From: Spongospora subterranea f. sp. subterranea
Taxonomy: Eukaryota
Assembly: GCA_049724395.1 (NCBI GenBank)
Contig: JAUGWO010000060.1
Location: 124,001 to 188,000, forward strand
Reading direction: 5' to 3'
Length of the DNA: 64,000 bases
Below are positions 36,150 to 58,402 of the stretch, one piece after another. A model generated the notes under the pieces. It made no database searches, was not told where the DNA came from, and saw nothing but the letters and a program-made list of their open reading frames with translations. A program made the translations under genes and the position numbers. Positions within the stretch are counted from its first letter, which is position 1. Every line of letters starts with the position of its first letter.

Positions 36150-36780
36150 ACGACATGTAAGTCTGTCCGACGTGGAAAACACCGTTTCCCAAACCCGTCG
36201 CCGCGCTGGACTCAAATTTGTTATGAATTTCCTCCAGAGTGACAGAATCGTCGAATTGGGTAACACTCAACGAACAGCGCCAAATCTTGCGATTGTGAAA
36301 CCGGAGAGCCTACCATTCCTGCCTCAATCAATATCAAGCGACTTGCCATCCCATTCGAAAATTACCACCTTGGCGAATCTTTCGTCTGGCCAACTCCGAC
36401 AGAAATTTCCAAATCACAAATTCAGTTTTTTCCTCATCTGTCGCCTGTTGATGACGCCCTTACTCTGAACGATAATACCCAGCTACCTTTGGATCAAGAA
36501 GTTTCCTTATGAAAGACCTCCGTTGATCAGGTTCGGATTTTTAATGATTCTTTACAAATTCGCCCCTGTGTTATCGCTCATATGGAACCATCAGTAGATC
36601 TCGTTCTCGACACCGCATTCGCTGCGAAGCCAGCGATATCCTGGTCTCCCGGTACCATTACCGAATTGTGCAGCCATTGTTTACACTGTCTCGGAAAAAT
36701 TATCGCGCGACCTCTTAGCAACGTCACGTCGTTCCGCGACAAAAAAAAATCCGACAAGGTTCACTTGGACAATCAGTTGA
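36150..36780 (+). mobile_element. Gypsy-type pol (integrase zinc-binding region) remnant
   Basis: The fragments FVWPTPTEISKSQ, LQIRPCVIAH and CLHCLGKIIARPL appear with stops and frameshifts. Confidence 0.5.
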
Positions 36781-37225
36781 CGGCTCTGCTAGCTCTGCTG
36801 GTAGGGGGTAACCAGTTGCCTGCTGACCTTCCTTGATCTGTAAATAATCCAACAATTTTATTAGATCATTTTTGTTCGAACATGAAGAACAGCTCTTGAG
36901 CCTTTTCTACTCAAACGGCGACAGCACAACTTTTGAACATGAAAGTGGGAAACCCTATTGAAACCCTTACCCCACAGGCCACAGTGGAAGATTCTCCATT
37001 TTCCGCGGTCATCAATTATATGTTCTAGCCCCTGATAGGTTCCTACGGTCTCCGCCACGGTGTCCGAGAGCCGTAGTGGGAAGGCGCCGGTGTTGTTGTG
37101 ATCTGATCGCGGAAGCTGTTCATTCACCAATCGCCTTGCTCGTGGTTGAAGCAATGATTGCCAGCCGTGTACTAAGGTAAGCCCATTGATTTTCATTTCC
37201 AATTCAGTTGCCGGTGTTGTAAATT

Positions 37226-37325
37226 TGGGACTTGATGACCATCTTTCCCCGAACAAATTCTGCTTTGAGTACAAAATTACCGCAACTGCCGTCTTCAAGT
37301 CAATTGGCTTTTGCGACTGATCCCA
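37226..37325 (+). ncRNA. Box C/D snoRNA, SNORD12/snR190-like (copy 1)
   Basis: Terminal stem TGGGA/TCCCA, box C TGATGA 37233-37238, box D CTGA 37317-37320. TCTTTCCCCG (37242-37251) is complementary to LSU rRNA CGGGGAAAGA. The D' box is degenerate. Confidence 0.65.
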
Positions 37326-37493
37326 TATTTATTATACCGTTTTCTGATGTTTTATTTCGCAGCTATTCACTAACATTATACTGATCCTTATTTGATTAGG
37401 TTGTCGCAATCTCGCATCTTTTCGATAATGTCGTCGATACGCATCCCTCATCCAAGGTAATATTAATATGGTTATTTGTTTGTATATGTTTGT

Positions 37494-37588
37494 TCGATAT
37501 GATTACATCTTTCCCCGTGTGAATTCGATACCTGAACACATGAAATGCAAGTTTTGCAGCCAGCAGAACACTATTGCGCTATGATCGA
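37494..37588 (+). ncRNA. Box C/D snoRNA, SNORD12/snR190-like (copy 2)
   Basis: Stem TCGAT/ATCGA, box C variant ATGATTA 37499-37505, box D variant ATGA 37581-37584. Guide TCTTTCCCCG-T before D' GTGA (37519-37522) places the +5 position on the third G of LSU CGGGGAAAGA (yeast G2395 equivalent). Confidence 0.65.
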
Positions 37589-37744
37589 CTTATCTATATT
37601 TCATTTGATGTTTTGCTTTTTGACCTAGCGATTCATCGTCAAAGGCTGATCAATGAACAGGCGAAGATCTATACTCGGATGCCCATTCGTGGGGTAACTG
37701 TCGTATTCTATTATCAGGTATGTAGCTCATTGTAAAGCTCGATT

Positions 37745-37819
37745 TTAAGTGATGATTCATTCAGTTCTGCTTCTGAATTTTTTTGTAGAATACTTATATA
37801 CCAAAAATAGTCTGATTTC
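37745..37819 (+). ncRNA. Box C/D snoRNA, U38/snR61-like, double guide
   Basis: Box C GTGATGA 37749-37755. Guide CAGTTCTGCTT before D' CTGA 37773-37776 pairs LSU AAGCAGAACUG (yeast Am1133 equivalent). A second guide, TACCAAAAATAG, before box D 37812-37815 pairs the adjacent LSU AUUUUUGGUA. Confidence 0.85.
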
Positions 37820-37899
37820 AACTAAACATTTTGTTCTTCATGTTTTTTGTAAGCAATTAATTGACTGCTTATTTATAGGTAATCAAATACGATACTCTA

Positions 37900-37987
37900 A
37901 AATTATGATGAGTTTCGTCTCAGACGGGCGGTCGGAAGTCGGACTTTACAAATCCGACGTATTGTCGATTTTTTATAATCTGATTTA
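37900..37987 (+). ncRNA. Box C/D snoRNA, U43/snR70-like
   Basis: Box C ATGATGA 37905-37911. Guide GACGGGCGGT before D' variant CGGA pairs SSU ACCGCCCGUC (yeast Cm1639 equivalent). Internal hairpin GTCGGA/TCCGAC. Box D CTGA 37980-37983. Confidence 0.8.
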
Positions 37988-38109
37988 CTTTTTATCGTTT
38001 TACCCAACCATCAAAGTCCATTTGATTTATGGATTGTTTTGCAGGAGTCGGCTTGTGACTCAGAATTCTCTCGGAAACCCATTATGTAAGTTTTCTCAAC
38101 CAAACAATT

Positions 38110-38189
38110 TTGCAATGATGATTTTAATTTACAGACCTGTTCCGAGAGATATGTATGTGGACAATAGTGAATTCCTCGTTTCTGAGCAA
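38110..38189 (+). ncRNA. Box C/D snoRNA, double guide: U25/snR56-like plus snR57-like
   Basis: Stem TTGC/GCAA, box C ATGATGA 38115-38121. ACAGACCTGTT+CCGA pairs SSU AACAGGUCUGU (Gm1428 equivalent). GAATTCCTCGTT-T+CTGA (38182-38185) pairs SSU AACGAGGAAUUC (Gm1572 equivalent). Confidence 0.92.
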
Positions 38190-38293
38190 CAATTTTTTGT
38201 TTTACTCCAATGCTAATTGTGCAATTGCTGATCGGTTTTTTGTTTCTAGGTCTTGAGTATCCACCATCGTAAGATATTTTCATACATTTTCGT

Positions 38294-38372
38294 TGTCCGG
38301 TGATGTACATATTATATTTGCTACTCTTGAACTACCTTGATGACCAAAATATCACCAAGATCTCTGAGGACA
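38294..38372 (+). ncRNA. U24: Box C/D snoRNA U24
   Basis: Stem TGTCC/GGACA, U24-type box C TGATGT, C' TGATGA. Guide TATTTGCTACT+C+TTGA pairs LSU AGUAGCAAAUA (Am1449 equivalent). Guide CACCAAGATCT+CTGA pairs LSU AGAUCUUGGUG (Cm1437 equivalent). Confidence 0.95.
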
Positions 38373-38505
38373 TCTAACGTTGTTTAATTTGGGTTCATTT
38401 TTCAAGAAGTCTAAGACTTATTCTTTTTCGTGTCCAGTGTGCGGTCTCTCGTTGTAGCCTCTCCCTGTGTTTTCTTGGTAAGATACTTTTTTTATCTGCT
38501 TTTCT

Positions 38506-38605
38506 TTTCCTGATGAAAGCATGATCATTTTTCTATGATATAAGCATATTCTCATTTGTTTATTAGCCATGATTCAGCAATTCATGCTGCCTTCCTTCTG
38601 AACTT
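38506..38605 (+). ncRNA. Box C/D snoRNA, snR52-like (SSU Am420 equivalent)
   Basis: Box C TGATGA 38511-38516. The 13-nt guide TGCTGCCTTCCTT directly before box D CTGA 38598-38601 pairs SSU AAGGAAGGCAGCA. Confidence 0.88.
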
Positions 38606-38751
38606 TGCTTTTTTTTTGTAACCGCATTGGGTGTTGACAGTTTTCTAAACTTTATCTTTGTCCAGGCGCTGCGTCTTCTCTAAGGGATGTTCTCGATTTC
38701 ACCATCATCAGGTAATTATTCAGATACAGTAATTCAATGTTGGTGTTTCTT

Positions 38752-38827
38752 TTTTCTGATGAGATATGTCAAGTCCAATTCTAAATCACCATGTTGATTT
38801 GCAAATCGAGCTTTTTAAATCTGAGCC
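38752..38827 (+). ncRNA. Box C/D snoRNA, U36/snR47-like (SSU Am619 equivalent)
   Basis: Box C TGATGA 38757-38762. Guide CGAGCTTTTTAA before box D CTGA 38821-38824 pairs SSU UUAAAAAGCUCG. Confidence 0.88.
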
Positions 38828-39415
38828 TACTTTTTCCAGTTTTTGTTGTTTTACAGGGTATTGTTGCTGACGTCAATGTTCATTTAGGTGTGCTCTTGTC
38901 GTGTTGACCGTTCTCCTGCACCATCTTTAATACATTTTTCTGATCATTCTCCAGCAATCTCGCGACATCGTTTTGTATCGTAGATTGACGCTTTCATAGC
39001 AAGTCAGATTGTAGATTTGTTGACCGCCTTTAGGGAAGGAAGTGACGTCCTCGTACGATTGCGAGATAATGGCACTGAATGTAGGGCTGGACCCATTAAC
39101 CATAATTACGAGAACAAAACGATACACATTATGAAGGATTCACCATCATAGATGAACCAGACCGTCAACTGTAATTGCGACCGAATGCGGCAGAGTCGAT
39201 CCGTTCATCACAGATTCGCGCCGTAACGAACGAATACCAAAAAATCTGTGGGTTGCTCTGCCAAACCTAATCGGGCCAGATCGGCGCCGTTTAACGTTGC
39301 AGACTACGTAAACCCCGTTCAAGTGTGATTGCTGTGTAACAGGCCATCGTACCATCGTTACCCCTGTCGTTACCACCAACAACCGCGCAGTTGTCATAGC
39401 AGTGTCGCTATTCAC

Positions 39416-45019
<5,604 letters not shown>

Positions 45020-45042: not shown

Positions 45043-46176
45043 TTAATTACTTTGTGGATCTGGCAATGGTGTAGGCGGGGGGTCGTCGGGGCTTTGTGGA
45101 TCTGCAAATGCTGTAGACGGAGGGTCGTCCGGGCTCTCTTCATCGTCAGATAAAATTATCAATCCTCTCAACGGAGGATGAGGGTACATAAATTTCTTAG
45201 AATAGTCAACCTCGAACCCTAAATGTTTGAGGACGCCTACGACTTCCTTTCGCTTCATTATATGTGGTATATGACTGACAGGTCTCACGTTTCGGCTCCT
45301 GCTTATGCAGATGATATTTCTCAGCACTGTCTCCAACCATTCTCGAAATAAATCATAGAGCGCCCCGGCTCCCACACGCCTGTATCCGTACTTTCGCCTG
45401 ATCAATATTCTATAGAACAATCGCTCCTTCATGAAATCGGGAATGTCATATGTTTTCGAAGATGGAAGAGGCTGGTGATCGAACTCCACGTCGCTGCATG
45501 TAGAATCCGAATCCACAGTTAGACGGTCAGAATCGGAATCAAGCCCGTCAACAGTTTCATCATCTTGGTCACTAGAAGCCCCAAAAAATATTGGTGACGG
45601 TGGCTCTGGAATAACCATAGCATTCAAGGCCTCGATATAGTTGGCAATCTGGATGACATTCAGTGATGGTACTCTAGCAGCAATCAGATCAATATTTCCT
45701 CGTCCACAACGTCGTATGGCCCATTGCAGTCTGTATTTTTCCTCTATTGTGAGGTCTGGCAGACGGAATATTGGAACATCCTCTTCTGGTAAGTGTTTCA
45801 ATCGGGTCAAAGCATCATAATCTTCAAAATATGTTGATGATGCGTACGACATGTCATCTTCCTCTAGTTCGCTTTCCAGGTGTTGCCCTGGTTCGCTTTC
45901 CAGGTGTTGCCCTGGTTCGCTTTCCAGGTGTTGCTTTGGTTCGCTTCCCAGGTCTTGAAGTTGCCCTTGACTGTATTCATCAGAGCCGCACGACAAGGAC
46001 GAATTTTGGAAAATTTCGAAATCCAAATTGGCTGGTTTAAAGCGGAAAAGATCACGGTGAGGATCATCGTCGTCGATCAAATTGATGGGCGAACCTGAAT
46101 CTAAGCCGCTCCGCATCCTTTTTATCACATCCACCAGCGGGCTATCCTCTGCCGGACGTTTGCCATGGCGTTCCAT
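45043..46176 (-). CDS. SANT/Myb + histone-fold protein (Rrn5-like architecture), intronless
   Basis: LTIEEKYRLQWAIRRCGRGNIDLIAARVPSLNVIQIANY is SANT-like. ILIRRKYGYRRVGAGALYDLFREWLETVLRNIICIS..EVVGVLKHLG resembles an H4-like fold. An 8-aa repeat ESEPGQHL is present. Confidence 0.6.
   Translation of the reverse strand: MERHGKRPAEDSPLVDVIKRMRSGLDSGSPINLIDDDDPHRDLFRFKPANLDFEIFQNSSLSCGSDEYSQGQLQDLGSEPKQHLESEPGQHLESEPGQHLESELEEDDMSYASSTYFEDYDALTRLKHLPEEDVPIFRLPDLTIEEKYRLQWAIRRCGRGNIDLIAARVPSLNVIQIANYIEALNAMVIPEPPSPIFFGASSDQDDETVDGLDSDSDRLTVDSDSTCSDVEFDHQPLPSSKTYDIPDFMKERLFYRILIRRKYGYRRVGAGALYDLFREWLETVLRNIICISRSRNVRPVSHIPHIMKRKEVVGVLKHLGFEVDYSKKFMYPHPPLRGLIILSDDEESPDDPPSTAFADPQSPDDPPPTPLPDPQSN
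45866..45955. repeat. 24-bp coding tandem repeat (~4 copies)
   Basis: GGTTCGCTTTCCAGGTGTTGCCCT units encode ESEPGQHL on the minus strand. Confidence 0.9.
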
Positions 46177-46501
46177 ATCTTCTGTGACGGCCGCGAACAG
46201 GCGACGCCTTTGGGCGCAGGACGGCCGTGCGGGAATGTCCCAAACCTGCGTAGCCTTCGACCACGCTGAGGAAACAACAATCAGATCCACGGTCGATTGT
46301 AGAATGACCTCACTGGCCTAGAGCAACATTCATGTCGAATTACGTTGCATTGATTCCTCCCACATGAACTTCAGGTCACGTGTCGACTGCATTGAGTGGG
46401 CATGCATTGCATTACATTGTTAGACACTCGTTTCGCTTATCCTTACAACATATACATAGGCATTGTAGTAATCATCGTTGCCGTCGATTCAAGAGCATCA
46501 T

Positions 46502-49500
46502 ATGGAGGGCAGCTTGGTTCAGGAATTCTTTGGTGAACAATACGGTACCCCACAACCAAAAAGGCCAAGAATTGACATTTCAGATCATCTCCAGCCAGCG
46601 CAGAAGTCATTGCGCTCTTTGAATGAATTAGAACTCAATCACAGATCAGTATTTTCTGGTTATAAGACGTTCAATCGTGTCCAGAGTATTGTATTTGAAG
46701 ATTTATATCACTCAGACAAAAGCATTGTCGTCGCAGCCCCGACCGCCTCTGGAAAAACCGTATTGTTTGAGCTTGCCATTTTGCGTTTATTTTCCTCCCA
46801 GCAGGACAGAAGTAGATTTAAGGCTGTGTACATTGCGCCATTAAAAGCATTATGCAATGAGAAACTACAATCTTGGCAATCACGTTTCGGCAACCTGGGA
46901 TTGAAATGCTGTGAATTCACTGGAGACTCCAACAACGACGTGAATCGCATTGCATCCAATCATATCATGTTGGTCATAAACTTAAATGATAGAATGGTAT
47001 TTAAGGCGGTTTCATCAGCATTACAACTCCAGAAAAACTGGATGCGTCCTCCCGTCGGTGGCAAGAGAACAAGTTCTTCTTTGACAATATCGGGCTTATG
47101 ATGATCGATGAAGTTCACACTGTAGGAGAACCTAGGGGTCGGGGTATCTGTCTAGAGGCGCTGATCACCAGGTTAATCACAGCAGTTTTGATAGCTTTCG
47201 CTAAAAGGGTATACGTTTTCCCAGGTGTCTTACCATGGGTATTCGAAAAAAGGAGCAAAACGATAATTGTCCAGCCTCAACTATGCGATTCGTTGCAGTT
47301 TCAGCAACCGTGCCAAACGCGGACGAACTTGGATCTTGGTTGCAGGCAAAACACTTTCAGTTTGGGGACAACTTTCGCCCAGTTCCCTTACAGTATCATG
47401 TTTTCGGTTATCCTATTCGCAAACAGCAGTCATATTATCCGTTTGATATGAGCCTAAATTACAAGGTATTTCACAATAAACTGGAATCACAGCTTATGAC
47501 GCCTTGACCAGGTTTTTGATATTATCCGACAATATTCTTCTGGCAGACCTGCTTTAGTATTTTGTTCAAGTAGAGCAGGCTGCTTGAAATGTGCAAAACA
47601 GGTTTTGGAAAGCGCAGCAAGTTCGGGATTCCGGTTTGTCAAAGATCATGAACATGAACAGTCTCTGAAAGTGCACAGCCAGCAACTCAAAGGTACACTG
47701 CTCTTCAAAACGCCCTGCACAAATTGAGGTGGGTACCCAACAGATGCGTCTCTTCGTGACATTTTCTGTCGTGGTGTAGCGATACATACGGCTGCCTTAT
47801 CTGCAGAAGATAGACAACTGATACTTGGCAATTTTGTTGCTGGGAGGATTTTGGTGCTCTGCGCAACAACTACATTAGCCCAGGGAGTTAACGTACCAAT
47901 CTTCATTATTGTTTTGTGATTTATGTTTTCGACATTCGACAATTTAGTTGCCGGCTGGTCTAGTGATCGTAAAGGGAACGCAAGTCTACAATAAAAGCCC
48001 TAGCGGCTTCACGGAGCATTCGTCAGCTACGATCTTGCAAATGTTCGTAAATTGATTCAAGATGTGCCGCATGATACTCTTTTACAGGATCGGGCGTGCG
48101 GGACGACCCCAGTTTGATGATTTCGGTGTTGCGATTGTTATGACAACAGCGAACATGGGGACGTTTTATGAAAATCTTTTGAAGGGTCAAAAGCCCATTG
48201 AGTCCCACTTGCTTGCTGGGAACGCGGCTGAGCATCTTAATGCCGAAATATCCATGCGTACTGAAACAATGTTCATCTTGGTGTCACCTTTGAAACTTGT
48301 TTACAGGAACAATCAATACTGTCCACGAAGCAGTGAATTGGATGCAAAACACGTTCGGGTCTGTTCGAATGAAAAAGTGCCCATCACAATTCGGGATTTC
48401 AGCTCGAGAAATTGAAGATCCTGCAGCTTATCAAACCGTCAGTGCAATCAAAGCTTAAGTATCGGAACTAACCCTTCCGGCAAGGTCCTGGAAAACCGAA
48501 TTCGACATTCTATTGCAACCCTAGAATCTGCTGGAATGGTTGAAAGTCAGCTACTGGATAGCAGAGTGATTCCCACACGATTAGGCGTCACCATGGTATA
48601 TGTAGACGAATGAGATAGCAAGTTCAGTTTCCATATCAAATTTCATAGGCCAAGTTTTACTTAAAAATCCCCACTGCAAGATTGATCGCTGACATTCCTC
48701 GAAACATAGACATGTGCGGTCTGATTAATATTATCGCGTCGTCCATTGAATTCGTTGATATGCCCATTCGTCAAGGGGAAAAAGCTCGTAAGTCTGTTTA
48801 GTGATACTGAGAAACAAATTTAACCGATTTTTTACATAGCCCTTAACGCCGCAAATAATAAAGAAACGATTAGGTTCGCATTCAAAGGAAAAGTTAAAAC
48901 TCTGGTAAACAATAGCACTCTAGTTGATGGTGCCTCAATGGTTGTCAAGGTGCATAAGATATCCATTCTGCTTTTGTGCGCTCTGCAATCTGCCTCGTCC
49001 TCCCCTTTTCAGTTGAATCTCTTAGATCAAGACCTGAAAAATGCACTAGACATTGCCAAAAGAATTACGGTGACTACTTACTTGCATCAGTTCTCGTTTT
49101 TCAACCAGGTTTAGAGGGCAGTTACCGAATATCATGGAGCGAGTGATAAGTCGTTTTCCGTTTACTTGAACAGCTTATTACTGTCAGTATTATTTGCTGA
49201 TGAATAATCTGACTTAAGATTTAACCATAGTCATAAAGCTTTTGAGAGGAGGATGTGGCATGACAGTCAATACTCTGTTAGGCAGATTGAGGGAATTGGG
49301 ATGAAAAAAGCCGCACAATTGATAGCTGCAGGGATTACAAGCATCGATAAGCTCAGAGAAATATCATCAGGGAAAATTGAAGCGGTTTGATGTTGTGGTA
49401 TTCAAATTTTACGGCTATGATACGCTATACACAGCTTTGCGATCGAAACCCACCGTTTGGCTTTCAAGTCAAACAGCGATTGTGTGGATTCCCAATGATC

Positions 49501-52699: not shown

Positions 52700-54830
52700 A
52701 AAATACGAAAACCTGGGACCCCACTATTGCTCAATTTTCTGGTCGACAGCAGACTTGGCTCCATTAAGACGTTTCAGCATGGGGACCAGACTGGTGTCGA
52801 TGATATTCTGTACGTTGCCTACGGTTTCGCCATTGCCAATGTCCACCACGTCCATGGGCACTGCAAGGACTCTGTGACGTGCACGCAATCCAATCGTTAC
52901 ACCGTGGTTCAGAGATTTTGGGCAATTCGCGATTACAGTACGGTAAAATTGCATAATAATGTCAAAGACTGTGGTATCGAATTATACTATATAGGCTGCC
53001 TTAATCAGTAAACCATGGAACAAATATCGTTTATGATTTTTTTTAGTCGAGTTGGTTCATTTTCATTGAACCGTCATGGACAGTCGATGACTCGGCGATG
53101 ACACGTGTATATCAAGGTCCTTGAAAAAAGCAATTGCTCGAACCGACATTCAAAGCACATCAACGTTCGTATCATTTCATCCAACCGAGAGCAAAATTTA
53201 GAAAAACGAATCGAGATCGGGCCATTTTACAAAAGCCCAATTCATGGGGCCTACAGAGGAAACATTCGTCTGTATGGGCACAAGCAACGGAGAGCGCCAA
53301 ACTCATGACTCGCCTCACTACCTTGTTACCTGACAATGGATCCGAGTATGTCAATAACCAGACAGCGCTTTCTTATCACAGACGAATATCAAACACCAAC
53401 TTGGCCATTTGTAGTCCAATACTCAACCTACAACGCTGAATCGACTACCGACGCGGCGCAACCCCTGTTGGATTATGGATGAACGACAAGCCTGACGTCG
53501 AACATTTGAGACCATTTGGATGTACTGCATATGCGCACATCGAATCCACAATGCGAGATTCAAAATCAATCCAATCCACCTGACTAAAATGCCAATTCTT
53601 AGGATACTCACTATATCAGAAACGCTGCACACTGTCACCGTCGAGCACCGCTGCGATCATCATAACACGAGACGTACAAGCGGCGATTGATATGTTTGAC
53701 GAATCAGATTCATTGACCATCGTGGACGACGTGATTCGAAATCCATCACACTCTCACCAACTTTCCGAAAACTTACGAGGTTGCCATGACGCGGCTGACG
53801 CTCATGAATGGCATGCAGCCGCAGATCAGGAAATGGCATTGCACAAAGAAACCATACTTGGGCACTCATATGTCTCGCAGTCAACAGCACCTGGAAGATA
53901 AACCAGAGAGATTTTAACCACAGCCTATTTGAACGCGCCACTACTGATCCCGATCTACGTTCAACAGACGTAAGGTTTTATCGAGCCCGGGATGCGAACA
54001 GGATGTGCATGCTTAACAAAGCCCTCTACGGCTTAAAACAGGCCGGTTGAGCTTGGCAGGCATCACTCTTCGACCTGATTCGCAACAACGGATTTTCTCA
54101 ATCCATGAAAGAACAGTGGGGATAACCATCTTCGGAACTGACGTCAATGATCTACTATTGACAGGAAAAGGACAAGGCTTAGTATTCGAAAAAAAATCCA
54201 GATTTAGATCTAACCTTCACACAGAGCGATCACCAACTTACAGGATGGGCGGACAGCGATTTGCTGGAGACAGAAGCGAACTAGTGGATGGATATTTTGC
54301 GTTAAACATAACGTCATGATTCATGGTGATAGAGCGCCAAATATCGTCGGCAATCGGCAATGGGCAGAGGATCCCGCGTGGTCGATGACGACTGTCGTGG
54401 AAAAGTATAAAGCAAATTGCCATGACTTTATCCACAACAGAAGCCGAATATTGCAGCTTCGGATGCGACAAAGGAAACCATATGGTTACAAGATCTTCTT
54501 TATGAATAACGGTCAAGTAACTCAAGGAGCAATTTTTGTTGAAACGAATACCTCCAACAAGTCACGAACCAAACACATAGACCTGAGACATCATTTCATT
54601 CGTGAGAAGACACAGGAAGGACGAATCAATTTTGAATATTGTCCAACCGAACTCATGATTGCAGACATTCTTCAAAACCACTCTCACATCCACTCTCCGT
54701 AAAACATCGCACTACGTTAATGGCCAAGAGATCAGTGACTATTCAGTGTCACGCTTCTAGTCACAGTGATACTGTTAGATCTTGTTACTTGTACAACGCC
54801 AATGTTACAATCACACTGTATTGTATGTGA
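52700..54830 (+). mobile_element. Degenerate, internally deleted Ty1/Copia LTR retrotransposon
   Basis: Integrase DNGSEY and KPDVEHLRPFGCTAYAHI; RT LNKALYGLKQAG; RNase H WADSDFAGD, EAEY and RTKHIDLRHHFIREK..CPTELMIADI. An LTR-like start TGTCACGCTTCTAGTCA lies at ~54747. Confidence 0.88.
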
Positions 54831-54839
54831 AATCATAAC

Positions 54840-57800
54840 AACGGGTGCACCGATTGATGTTCAATAGAAGAAGTGACTTGAATTATGGTATTCAGGTAAC
54901 GATATCTAAGTGTCATTGTACGCCATAGTCACTGTGGTAGTGCCGCTGTTGCACATCTCTTGTCCATTAACGTAGTGCGATGTTTTACGTAGAGTGGATG
55001 TGAGAGCGGTTTGGGGGTGAGGATATCTGCAATCATGAGCTCGGATGGACAGTATACAATATTGATCCGTCCTTCTTGTGTCTTCTCACGAATGAAATGA
55101 TGTCTTACGTCTATATGTTTGGTCCGCGACCTGTTAGAGGTAGTCTTCTCAAGGAAAATTGCACCTTGGTTATCTTGATACAAAGTCGCGTGTATTTTGG
55201 AAAGTATTGCAAGTTCATAAAGTAGATCTTGTAAGCATCTGGCTCCTTCGTCGCATCGGAAGCTGCAATATATTCGGCTTCTGTTGTGGATAAAGTAACT
55301 GTATTTTGTTTCTTTTTTTTTTCAAGAGATGACGTTATGTCCAATTGAAAATATCCATCCAGTAGTCGACTTACGATCGCTCTTGTCTCCAGCAAAATCG
55401 CTATCCGCCCATCCTGTACGTTGGTGATCTCTCTGTGTGAAGGTTAGACCTAAATCTGGGAGTTCCTTTTAAATACTTGTTATTCTTTGAATGGCTATCC
55501 ATAAAGATTTCGTGGGCTTGGTAACATGTCGGCTGATGTTGTTGATTGCGAATGCCAGGATCAGGGTCTCGTCGCATTTGCCAGGTAGGTAAGACTTCCA
55601 ATGCTTCACAAATCGGGTATGTGGTGATGCTAGCGTCGTCATCTGGCGGACCATTATGGGCCAAAACTTAAGATGAAAAACTTAGGTGAAATACAAAGAT
55701 TTCTCGGACTATGAGGCAAGATGAAAAACTGAGGACACAGATTTCTCGGATTACAAGCAAGATGATCGTCCTCACACACAAGGATTACACGCTCTTTATC
55801 ATATCCAAATTCGGACAGGAGAACTGCGAACACCAACCCCCATATCGGAAATCTAAACGCCAGATGACAACGCTAGCATCACCACATACCCGATTCGTGA
55901 AGCATTGGAAGTCTTACCTACCTGGCAAATGCGACGAGACCCTGATCCTGGAATTCGCAATCAACAACATCAGCCGACATGTCACCAAGCCCACGAAATC
56001 TTTATGACTAGCCATTCAAGGTTTTGAAGTATCTGGGCTCGTTCAGCTGAGATGTTCGACGAACTGCTGAGTGCGAGCACGTTCGGATTCTTTTATAAAC
56101 GAGAAGGATTTGAAGTTGAGCTTTCTGAGTCCAGGGGTGGCGGTTCAGGAGCTTGACTAATTGTTTGAGTTTCTCTTGTAATTCAGAAGGAAAAATGGAA
56201 TAACAAAAGGCACGAATGGTTTGACTGGTCTAGCTATTGGTTCTCGTTGATTAATCCTGACAGCCCTCGTATAGTGGAAGCAGGGTGAGAAGAATGTGGT
56301 GGAAGATGCTGGAATGTGCTAATTGGTTCAGCGTAAGATTTAAACGAGATGATGCCTTCAGTGGACTTCACATGATAGTGAGGTCCAAGAAGTCGACATG
56401 TTCTTTAGATATGTTCCAGGTGAGTTGAATTCATGGAATGAACTCATTCATTTCATTCAAACATTGCCAGAGATCAAAGGATGTTGTCAATCTCGGCCCG
56501 TTTCCTGTTAGTAACAGATCATCGACAAATGTTCCGATGATGGTTATCCCCTTGCCCTTCTTCTTATACCATATACACGGCTCTTTCATGGATTAAGTAA
56601 ATCCATTGTTGCGAATCAGATCGACTTTAATGATGTCTGCCAAGCTCTACCGGCCTGCTTTGAGCCGTAAAGGGCTTTGTTGAGCATGCACACCTTGTTC
56701 GCGTCCCCGGGCTTGATTCCAGCGGTCGGACGTAAATGGGATCAATAGTGGCGCGTTCAATGAGGCTGTGGAAAAGTCTCTCTGGTATATCTTGTGCTTC
56801 AAAAACTTGACCCATGTCCAGGTGGAGTATCTGTATCCTTCCTTGCTAAGAACCAGGAATGGTCCTTCAAGGTCTGAAAAAACGATTTCAAATGACCTAG
56901 TTGACTTTGTCCAACGTTCCTGTGCGAATGGTTGCTTCCGTGACTTTCCATGGGCACAGTTTTCGCAGAGCTGTCGTTCTTGCGGTGTGATTTTGACGCC
57001 TTCAGTGGGTTCTTGTAAATGCTTCAGTCTCTCGTCCGATGCGTGATCGAATCTTCGGTGCGCTAGCGCCATGCTAAGTCGTTGTGCTTGTGCGCCGTAA
57101 CGATAACCTTTCCATCTTGATTCTTGATACGAGTCGATGACTACGCTTAAACCTTGATCGGTAAACGATTTCGTAGCTAACAGGGACGAAAAATATATTG
57201 TGGATACAAATTGGTGGTTTGCATTGTATGGTCAGTGATCCTTGTCTGTATGCAGGTGATATCTCGCCGTTGCTGCAAGTGATCATGATCGGGTCCTGTA
57301 GTGACCTGTGGTTGTGAAGTAAGTTCAAATCATTCGACGTTCGCGCGACTATCGATGATATAGGCACTGTTGATGGAAACGTTCTGGTGGACGCACTGTG
57401 GAATCCTGTAAACTCCTGTTCCTTTTCGTCAGTCGTGGTCGTGTTGTTCAGTTCAGAGGACGGTTGTTCTTATATTGCGTCTTCAAGTGTGGGTGCAGTA
57501 GCCAGCATTCTTCGTTCGAATGCGTTTATCGACTGCAGCGTGTGCAGCACTTGCCGTTGTTGTATTTATTGCCTCTGTCTTTGTTGTTGTTATTTGACTT
57601 TTCCTTATGCCACTTGGTTCGCTCAATATTAAGAGATGTGTCATTTTCGAGGTCTTTTGTCAATAGTAAGTTCGTCAGTCTTGCAATAGAATTTATTTGA
57701 GATGCTCTGGCGGCTGCCTTGGTGGTTGGTATTGATCCGGCAAGCCATCAAGGGCCTTGACGCATAGGGCTAGTTCGCTAACGTCGATGTTGTGGACTCT

Positions 57801-58402
57801 CAGGTCATGGTATAGTTCTACCATTTTGCCTAGGTGTCCTTTCATAGTTTGATTCGGCTGCTTCTGGTGGTGGATGAATCGAAGAAATAAGTTCGCTGCC
57901 TTGGATTTTGCTGTTTGAACGTAAATCTCCTGGAGCGTTGTCCATAATTCATTTGTTGTCGTGCATCTGGAAACCTGTTTATATTGAGTTTGTGATAATC
58001 GCATGCTGGATTGAGCGGAGGCGAGTTGATCGTTGCGTTGTTCGATCGTGTTGCCGCGGGTTGGCGGGTAGGGTAAGAACGAGTCGATGTCCATTATTAC
58101 AAACTTTGTCTCGGTCGTGCGTCGGAATTCCTCCCAATTTCTTCCGGTGAATTCCGGGATCAGTTTTAGTCCCGAGTTGTGTTTCGAGATATTGGCCTCT
58201 TATCTTGATCGGTGCGTGTATGGTGTTTACATAGCTTCGTTGGGTGTGTCTGGAGTGGTGTCCTCCTCTTGAGTCTCTCTTTGTATTTGTATCATCTTGT
58301 GTAGAGCAAAACTGGGACTCTCAAGTTAATAACGGGTGCACCGATTGATGATCATTACAAGAAGTACGATATCTAAGTATCACTATGACTAGAAGCGTGT
58401 AG
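54840..58402 (-). mobile_element. Degenerate Ty1/Copia LTR retrotransposon with short LTR remnants at both ends
   Basis: gag (ELWTTLQEIY), a Zn knuckle, HRRFDH..CENCAHGK, VFSDLEGP, RT KALYG.KQAG and FVDDLL, RNase H STTEAEYIA and DNQGAI..RTKHID. The direct repeat AACGGGTGCACCGATTGATG occurs at 54840 and 58331. Confidence 0.92.
55487..56019. repeat. ~160-bp inverted duplication inside the Copia element
   Basis: 55487-55648 is a close reverse complement of 55858-56019, with a ~210-bp spacer. The same peptide appears on both strands in the ORF track. Confidence 0.9.

Follow-up and report, generated by a model that had tools for sequence, protein, structure and literature searches.

Introduction

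Vertebrate SNHG1 (UHG) and GAS5 and Drosophila Uhg carry many small nucleolar RNAs (snoRNAs) of the box C/D class, one in each intron, and contain no long open reading frame (ORF). In Chlamydomonas, a part of the hosts of intronic snoRNAs (the set of Chen et al. 2008) are likewise said to be spliced non-coding genes. For Neurospora (PMC2780460), Candida (PMC5033589) and Schizosaccharomyces pombe (bioRxiv 10.1101/226894), non-coding hosts have been described in which each intron holds a single snoRNA, and nested and zero-exon splicing is described in Candida and its relatives (PMC5033589). Elsewhere among unicellular eukaryotes, snoRNAs are given as mostly intergenic in Tetrahymena (PMC3273799) and as a mixture of intronic and clustered forms in Ostreococcus (PMC7671301), and the annotation of protist snoRNAs is acknowledged as poor (PMC11028025). 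In the present work, we have analysed a stretch of 64,000 nucleotides (nt) from the rhizarian Spongospora subterranea f. sp. subterranea (assembly GCA_049724395.1, contig JAUGWO010000060.1, positions 124,001 to 188,000; hereafter the window, numbered from its first letter), in which a locus at 37122-38955 most probably represents a dedicated non-coding snoRNA host gene consisting of eight intron units with one predicted box C/D snoRNA in each. We place the probability of this reading at about 0.85.

The closest described systems are the snR57-55-61 cluster II of Candida and Lodderomyces, cluster III of Debaryomyces, and S. pombe SPNCRNA.445 and SPNCRNA.659, which are described as non-coding spliced hosts of the same kind, with tiny or zero-length exons and recursive splicing. 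The zero-length exon lies between snR41 and snR70 in D. hansenii (PMC5033589) and between snR61 and an snR70-type guide in S. subterranea, and it lies in a 336-nt intron in the S. pombe snoRNA61 host (bioRxiv 10.1101/226894) and in a 327-nt intron here. The S. subterranea locus differs from the fungal clusters in its position within the Rhizaria, in its eight snoRNAs, whose membership and order match no fungal cluster compared in the available text, in the fusion of the Gm1428 and Gm1572 guides in one predicted RNA, and in a predicted helix over the second donor. The UHG-like clusters I-V of Neurospora crassa resemble it in having one snoRNA per intron, a constrained acceptor distance, short ORFs and alternative splicing (PMC2780460), but, as far as they are described there, they hold different snoRNA sets and a split U24, which in Spongospora is a single double-guide RNA. 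Chlamydomonas, a non-opisthokont with intronic snoRNAs, is described as having several of them per intron, in contrast to one per unit here, and the Spongospora host is far more compact than vertebrate SNHG1 and GAS5 and Drosophila Uhg.

An initial annotation of this DNA, made from its letters alone, had set the locus apart from the snoRNA genes of yeast; this contrast is not supported, as fungi are described with the same UHG-like hosts, including zero-length exons (PMC2780460, PMC5033589, bioRxiv 10.1101/226894). No published rhizarian or plasmodiophorid snoRNA host was found in a search of titles and the starts of abstracts; the supplements of genome papers may list these snoRNAs. For recursive splicing with snoRNAs, titles and the starts of abstracts yielded fungal cases only, and the gene order is shared with no known host among those testable. 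The expectation that the locus would be unannotated agrees with the lack of a protein match for its long frame and with the absence of the word snoRNA from the available text of a 2026 resource review (PMC12883290).

RNA evidence for a probable non-coding host gene

The RNA evidence consists of assembled contigs from 8 of the 14 public runs that cover part of the window; the rows of runs X2 and X13 are identical and probably one data set, so that three independent studies are represented. Across the 8 runs, all eight consecutive units (+ strand, 161-223 nt, one box C/D element per unit) are removed at GT-AG sites. The features of the locus are as follows; the snoRNAs and their rRNA targets in the small-subunit (SSU) and large-subunit (LSU) rRNA are predicted.

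37122..37176, + strand, exon 1; 5' end approximate, the spliced contig of run X8 starting at 37135
37177..37399, + strand, intron 1, 223 nt; joint in 5/8 runs
37227..37325, + strand, snoRNA 1, snR190/DdR2 type; box C 37232, box D 37317, terminal stem of 5 bp, D' degenerate, guide directed at the region of LSU G2395
37400..37456, + strand, exon 2, 57 nt; from RNA contigs
37457..37660, + strand, intron 2, 204 nt; joint in 5/8 runs
37494..37588, + strand, snoRNA 2; box C 37499, D' 37519, D 37581, predicted target LSU G2395
37661..37717, + strand, exon 3, 57 nt; from RNA contigs, with 37699-37714 predicted to pair as 5' arm with 37879-37894 in a helix
37718..37878, + strand, intron unit 3, 161 nt; excised alone in runs X1 and X6, ending at the zero-length exon
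37744..37818, + strand, snoRNA 3, snR61/U38 family; RF00476 at 59.3 bits (threshold 45), predicted target LSU Am1133
37876..37884, + strand, zero-length exon, TAG/GTAATC (the slash marks the joint); the unit 3 acceptor is followed at once by the unit 4 donor
37879..38044, + strand, intron unit 4, 166 nt; excised jointly with unit 3 in 5/8 runs
37901..37987, + strand, snoRNA 4, snR70/U43 type; box C 37905, D' 37933, D 37980, predicted target SSU Cm1639
38045..38085, + strand, exon 4, 41 nt; from RNA contigs
38086..38249, + strand, intron 5, 164 nt; from RNA contigs
38110..38189, + strand, snoRNA 5, double guide; predicted targets SSU Gm1428 (D', snR56/U25 type) and Gm1572 (D)
38250..38268, + strand, exon 5, 19 nt; present in X8 and X9, skipped in X1
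38269..38437, + strand, intron 6, 169 nt; run X8, with an alternative 59-nt intron at 38379-38437 in X9
38295..38371, + strand, snoRNA 6, U24/SNORD24; RF00069 at 56.3 bits (threshold 41), predicted targets LSU Am1449 (D') and Cm1437 (D)
38438..38477, + strand, exon 6, 40 nt; from RNA contigs
38478..38665, + strand, intron 7, 188 nt; 3/8 runs
38510..38605, + strand, snoRNA 7, snR52/U83 type; box D 38598, box C 38510 or 38521, predicted target SSU Am420
38666..38711, + strand, exon 7, 46 nt; from RNA contigs
38712..38887, + strand, intron 8, 176 nt; 3/8 runs
38752..38828, + strand, snoRNA 8, snR47/U36 type; box C 38756, D 38821, predicted target SSU Am619
38888..38955, + strand, exon 8; 3' end approximate, with a weak hint from the ends of spliced contigs (X8, X6, X9)

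The oligo-dT library X8 yielded one 370-nt contig that is spliced throughout, from 37135 to 38955. The joint of intron 5 is listed in 3/8 runs and can also be traced in X8 via inserted letters and in X9 via loose ends. That of intron 6 occurs in 1/8 runs (X8), the same acceptor being used in X1 and X9, and the intron is retained in one X6 contig. Alternative isoforms thus comprise the skipping of exon 5 (X1), the retention of intron 6 (X6) and the use of the 59-nt intron (X9), whose donor, GTTGTT, is unusual and which leaves U24 inside an exon. The initial annotation had given the introns as 160-220 nt and the exons as 0-89 nt: the long introns stand, with a corrected range of 161-223 nt, and the internal exons measure 57, 57, 0, 41, 19, 40 and 46 nt in order, an 89-nt exon requiring the nearer AG at 37628 in intron 2, which is used by 0/8 runs.

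In the fully spliced RNA, whose length is about 390-420 nt, no ATG ORF exceeds 38 codons, the median of 2000 shuffles being 42, in keeping with the proposal of a dedicated carrier with only short ORFs. Two alternative spliced isoforms reach 45 and 55 codons and the form that retains unit 4 reaches 85; the long frame that spans units 3-5 matches nothing in Pfam, and a search among proteins of 56-181 residues gave no homologue for it. That the spliced exons encode a functional small peptide, namely the 38-codon frame running from exon 1 to exon 3, is highly improbable in our assessment: this frame is opened by the first ATG and is common to all isoforms examined, but its length lies below the shuffle median.

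The setting of the locus was established from a helicase gene in the same window, of which the frame at 46472-47098 shows 96% identity to a protein from Spongospora subterranea, as against 45% for Plasmodiophora brassicae, which assigns the DNA to S. subterranea or a very close relative (Phytomyxea, Rhizaria). When this protein is chained along the window, 1090 of its 1123 residues are placed and 19 introns of 45-55 nt are obtained, which bears out the description of a protist with tiny introns. The snoRNA units are three to four times this size, which we interpret as the result of a constraint that processing places on the spacing between box D and acceptor. The end of box D lies 79, 76, 63, 61, 64, 70, 64 and 63 nt from the used acceptor in units 1-8, respectively, and nearer HAG sites are present in 7/8 units yet skipped; the distance to the acceptor is reported to matter for the processing of intronic snoRNAs (PMC2780460). 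This distance of 61-79 nt would accordingly set the size of the units. Of the other introns in the neighbourhood, the first intron of the downstream ABC-transporter gene (39648-39742, about 95 nt, placed from loose contig ends) exceeds the 45-55 nt of the helicase introns. The host locus itself lies in the two kilobases of the window with the highest AT content (GC 0.39 and 0.37), and TCATTC at 37120-37125 may be an initiator-like start motif of exon 1.

Following the established biogenesis of intronic box C/D snoRNAs, each excised lariat would be debranched and trimmed to a protected C/D ribonucleoprotein (RNP). Guided by this RNP, fibrillarin would methylate whichever base pairs with the fifth nucleotide upstream of D or D' (the +5 rule), and the short exon RNA would be a by-product.

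Predicted box C/D snoRNAs and their rRNA targets

As had been noted from the sequence, boxes C and D occur in every intron (8/8 units) and several elements have terminal stems, which are clear in units 1, 2, 5 and 6. The GA/GA core is intact in 8/8 units, and position 6 of box C pairs with position 1 of box D in 8/8 (unit 7 being taken with box C at 38510), snoRNA 2 having a compensating U-A pair instead of G-C. Rfam gives only three above-threshold matches in the 64 kb, two of which lie at the host locus (snR61 and SNORD24); the Rfam comparison proposed in the initial annotation thus bears out these two, the other six being below threshold or absent. Unit 5 matches snR56 with 41.1 bits (E 0.0013, threshold 54), unit 8 matches SNORD36 in part with 26.1 bits (threshold 30), unit 7 has weak sub-threshold matches to U83/snR52, the best match of unit 2 is Dictyostelium DdR2 at 18.5 bits, far under threshold, and Rfam returned no informative family match for units 1 and 4. 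SnoRNAs 1 and 2, which share a 12-nt guide and their layout, are probably paralogues.

Guides were compared with surrogate rRNAs, viz. rDNA contigs of other eukaryotes that occur as contaminants in prokaryotic and viral collections, the scans of viral contigs yielding only short rRNA fragments. (The prokaryotic records L031 and L033, which are one contig, and L005, L015, L018, L021, L030 and L034 contain long eukaryotic rDNA, in one such record as a 10,235-bp tandem repeat; this probably reflects assembly contamination.) Ten guide stretches form 10-14 pairs at the same conserved sites across 13 surrogate rDNA loci, and in 7/8 units the guide lies upstream of a D or D' box with at most one mismatch, unit 1 doing so only via a degenerate D'. 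By the +5 rule all nine target sites named in the initial annotation are recovered on the surrogates, that of unit 1 again only through its degenerate D'. On the full rDNA unit L031, the offset of the +5 base to yeast numbering is steady at +13 to +16 (measured for SSU 420, 1428 and 1639 and LSU 1133, 1437 and 1449).

The predicted guide of snoRNA 3 to LSU Am1133 forms 12 pairs in 6 surrogate rDNAs, that of snoRNA 4 to SSU Cm1639 forms 10 pairs at the same site in 9, that of snoRNA 7 to SSU Am420 forms 13 pairs in 3, and that of snoRNA 8 to SSU Am619 forms 12 pairs in 4. The double guides form up to 13 pairs each with Gm1428 and Gm1572 (snoRNA 5; the Gm1572 guide is one that we take to be snR57) and 11-14 pairs with Am1449 and Cm1437 (snoRNA 6). 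Yeast names and sites follow PMC3511168 (Table 1), PMC2780460 (Table 1) and PMC8536666 as far as these give them, with numbers varying by 1-2 between schemes. A filter for box C, box D and a guide of at least 12 pairs retains 4/8 units within the 1.7 kb of the locus, compared with 4 matches in the other ~125 kb of both strands (Poisson p about 4e-7 for the enrichment at the locus); at a guide of at least 10 pairs the filter is unspecific, with 83 matches of which 9 lie within the locus.

Units 1 and 2 form 10 pairs with LSU helix 73 around G2395, a region to which an element of yeast snR190 is reported to be complementary (PMC8536666). A second element of snR190 type, directed to LSU domain I, was sought in the 3' halves of snoRNAs 1 and 2, and no conserved complement of at least 11 nt was found in six surrogate rDNAs, some of them partial. 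G2395 is the weakest of the predictions, because snoRNA 1 lacks a usable D', the second snR190 element is absent and G2395 is unmethylated in yeast; methylation of G2395 by snoRNA 1 is doubtful. Two other placements for snoRNA 1 were rejected, viz. LSU ~808 (10 pairs, CCGA box), which by our numbering is one base off the known site, and a 9-nt match to the SSU 578 region (Afu_300 alignment), which comes with no placed box and does not rise above chance. Neither the 3' halves of snoRNAs 1-4 nor the 5' halves of snoRNAs 7-8 yielded a second guide that is conserved on the surrogate rDNAs.

Several observations weigh against the identification of the host and its snoRNAs. Assembled contigs give no strand, ends or level, the strand being taken here from the GT-AG orientation, and mature snoRNAs and rRNA methylation are predictions, the contig evidence showing neither. 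The targets are predicted on the rDNA of other eukaryotes, 6/8 elements remain under the Rfam thresholds, and no snoRNA element folds better than its shuffles (z -1.03 to +1.56), folding energy being uninformative here. For G2395 in particular, snoRNA 1 reaches the site only through a D' with 3 mismatches, and yeast snR190 is reported not to methylate this base (PMC8536666).

The zero-length exon and the probable order of splicing

Units 3 and 4 abut at 37878/37879, an AG being followed immediately by a GT (TAG/GTAATC). The 327-nt joint 37718-38044 is found in 5/8 runs, unit 3 is removed alone (37718-37878) in 2/8 runs that belong to two studies (X1 and X6, of which X6 holds both this form and the 327-nt product), and unit 4 is removed alone in 0/8. 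This pattern is compatible with two-step splicing, and we consider it probable that units 3 and 4 are removed by two successive splicing reactions. Unit 3 would leave first; its excision recreates a CAG/GTAATC donor that resembles the other donors, and the zero-length exon would in this way give snR61 and the Cm1639 guide one lariat each. The description of the host as holding one snoRNA per intron applies if the 327-nt intron is taken as two units.

Excision of the 327-nt intron in a single step, with a two-snoRNA intron cut by a nuclease as in plants and 37878 serving simply as an alternative acceptor, would agree with the 327-nt joint as the common product, with the failure to see unit 4 removed alone and with the occurrence of other alternative isoforms. 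We regard this as unlikely, as it places a consensus donor exactly at the alternative acceptor by a chance of about 1% (by expectation the 89-nt spacer would contain the AG/GT motif 0.01-0.02 times, and 0.8% of its shuffles do contain it). It would also leave snR61 229 nt from its acceptor, and unit 3 fits the 63-nt spacing from box D to acceptor only if the internal acceptor at 37878 is used. Unit 4 for its part has 26 nt from donor to box C and 61 nt from box D to acceptor, as in free-standing introns, and the spacer contains no strong hairpin (z -0.29). A different fate after the splicing of unit 3, in which RNase III cuts a helix across the junction and frees the Cm1639 guide from the exon, has a precedent in S. 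pombe snR107/U14, where a helix likewise spans the junction left by the removal of an upstream snoRNA intron (PMC12508059). The unit-3-only intermediate of two studies and a predicted 14-bp helix with high pair probabilities would suit such a cut. In the S. pombe case as described, however, the downstream snoRNA is exonic, whereas here it lies in the second intron unit, which the common product lacks; the helix has few pairs and interruptions (-9.7 kcal/mol), unit 4 retains the spacing of an intron, and the fully spliced product is common, implying that the spliceosome uses or skips the donor. RNase III cleavage is in our view improbable, more so than single-step excision.

Returning to the two successive reactions, the predicted helix pairs 37699-37714 in exon 3 with 37879-37894 in unit 4 and covers the second donor, with pair probabilities of 0.82-1.0 (0.4-0.5 for the end pair) both before and after the first splice. 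It could hide the recreated donor and thereby set or slow the order of removal, a gating role that we put forward tentatively and hold to be rather doubtful.

Other observations speak against two-step removal or against the helix. The unit-3-only form may represent a stable alternative isoform, for X1 keeps unit 4 although it has already lost introns 5-6 further downstream, and the X9 isoform that leaves U24 in an exon is a comparable alternative form. In the controls, 42, 6 and 79 of 2000 fold equally well, and the helix, which was found post hoc, ranks second of 56 pairs of exon ends and intron starts. The zero-length exon and the helix are also without support from conservation, because no orthologue was found. 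A metagenome scan for an orthologue of the Gm1428 and Gm1572 double guide returned 9 loci, which form three groups according to position and length and were all judged to be chance (6 were scanned with Rfam, giving no snoRNA, and 4 were read by eye). Visual inspection of these four showed a bacterial ORF, DNA of animal-like character and further unrelated DNA that lacks a box C.

Boundaries of the host and neighbouring transcripts

The initial annotation had extended the host to 39130. Spliced contigs of two studies stop near 38950 (at 38955 in X8, 38951 in X6 and 38948 in X9), and no contig of studies P2 and P3 covers 38955-39473, which is not taken as proof of a transcript end. Directly downstream lies an ABC-transporter gene with its first ATG at 39416, and the snoRNA introns might thus be sought in a long 5' leader of its mRNA, the host then being a coding gene. 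The contigs of sample S1 (X1, X3 and X4) do continue unbroken from the host locus into the ABC gene, and snoRNA introns in untranslated regions are described in Candida (PMC5033589). The bridging contigs, however, carry a CT..AC joint at 38781-38830 (50 nt), the mark of the opposite strand, and leave units 7 and 8 unspliced, so that an antisense RNA and the ABC mRNA have most likely been joined in them. With the spliced contigs of the two other studies ending at 38948-38955 and several upstream ORFs in such a leader, this alternative is very unlikely, and the host transcription unit is likely to be independent of the ABC gene.

The minus-strand spliced transcript, at 38544-39647 with its intron at 38830-38781, occurs in three runs of one sample and was not observed in the other studies. 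It overlaps units 7-8 and the start of the ABC gene, its longest ATG ORF has 83 codons, and its intron covers the snoRNA 8 guide and box D on the opposite strand. Upstream of the host there is a separate transcript of low depth at 36500-36783 with a 64-nt GT-AG intron (36531-36594, X4), and it is directly preceded by two open frames of 127-128 codons, neither of which matches Pfam. A hairpin at 37030-37100, also upstream of the host, folds no better than its shuffles (z 0.26) and has no Rfam match.

Other features of the window

A sequence at 61434-61520 matches the Rfam tRNA model with 38.3 bits and has a short insertion in the anticodon arm; it is probably an intron-containing tRNA and was not called by ARAGORN as set. 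The segment 32591-33976 consists of about 28 copies of a 49-nt unit that are 90-96% alike and strongly C-skewed, all three + frames being open for more than 500 codons. An apparently broken copia-type retrotransposon, judged by eye from the translations, lies at 54214-58199; its gag, integrase-like and RNase H-like pieces are distributed over both strands. A homologue search with the ORF at 45043-46317 gave no matches, and a bacterial promoter scan, irrelevant here, was empty.

Significance

Non-coding snoRNA hosts and zero-length exons are already published for animals and fungi, and no new mechanism is involved here. The initial annotation had suggested that the locus bears on the age of the host-gene strategy. 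[quoted passage not shown] It is conceivable, if rather less likely than otherwise, that a rhizarian possesses the full animal and fungal solution (a dedicated host, one snoRNA per lariat, a fixed spacing from box D to acceptor and a zero-length exon), either independently or by descent from LECA, together with a helix switch that would force unit 3 out first and then commit the intermediate either to a second round of splicing or to cleavage by a nuclease.

The locus represents an RNA-supported non-coding host with one predicted snoRNA per intron, and a zero-length exon with its intermediate, in the Rhizaria, a group distant from both animals and fungi. It contributes one data point on the ancestral or repeated origin of snoRNA hosts, and it indicates that intronic C/D snoRNAs obey their spacing rule even in an organism whose ordinary introns are about 50 nt long.

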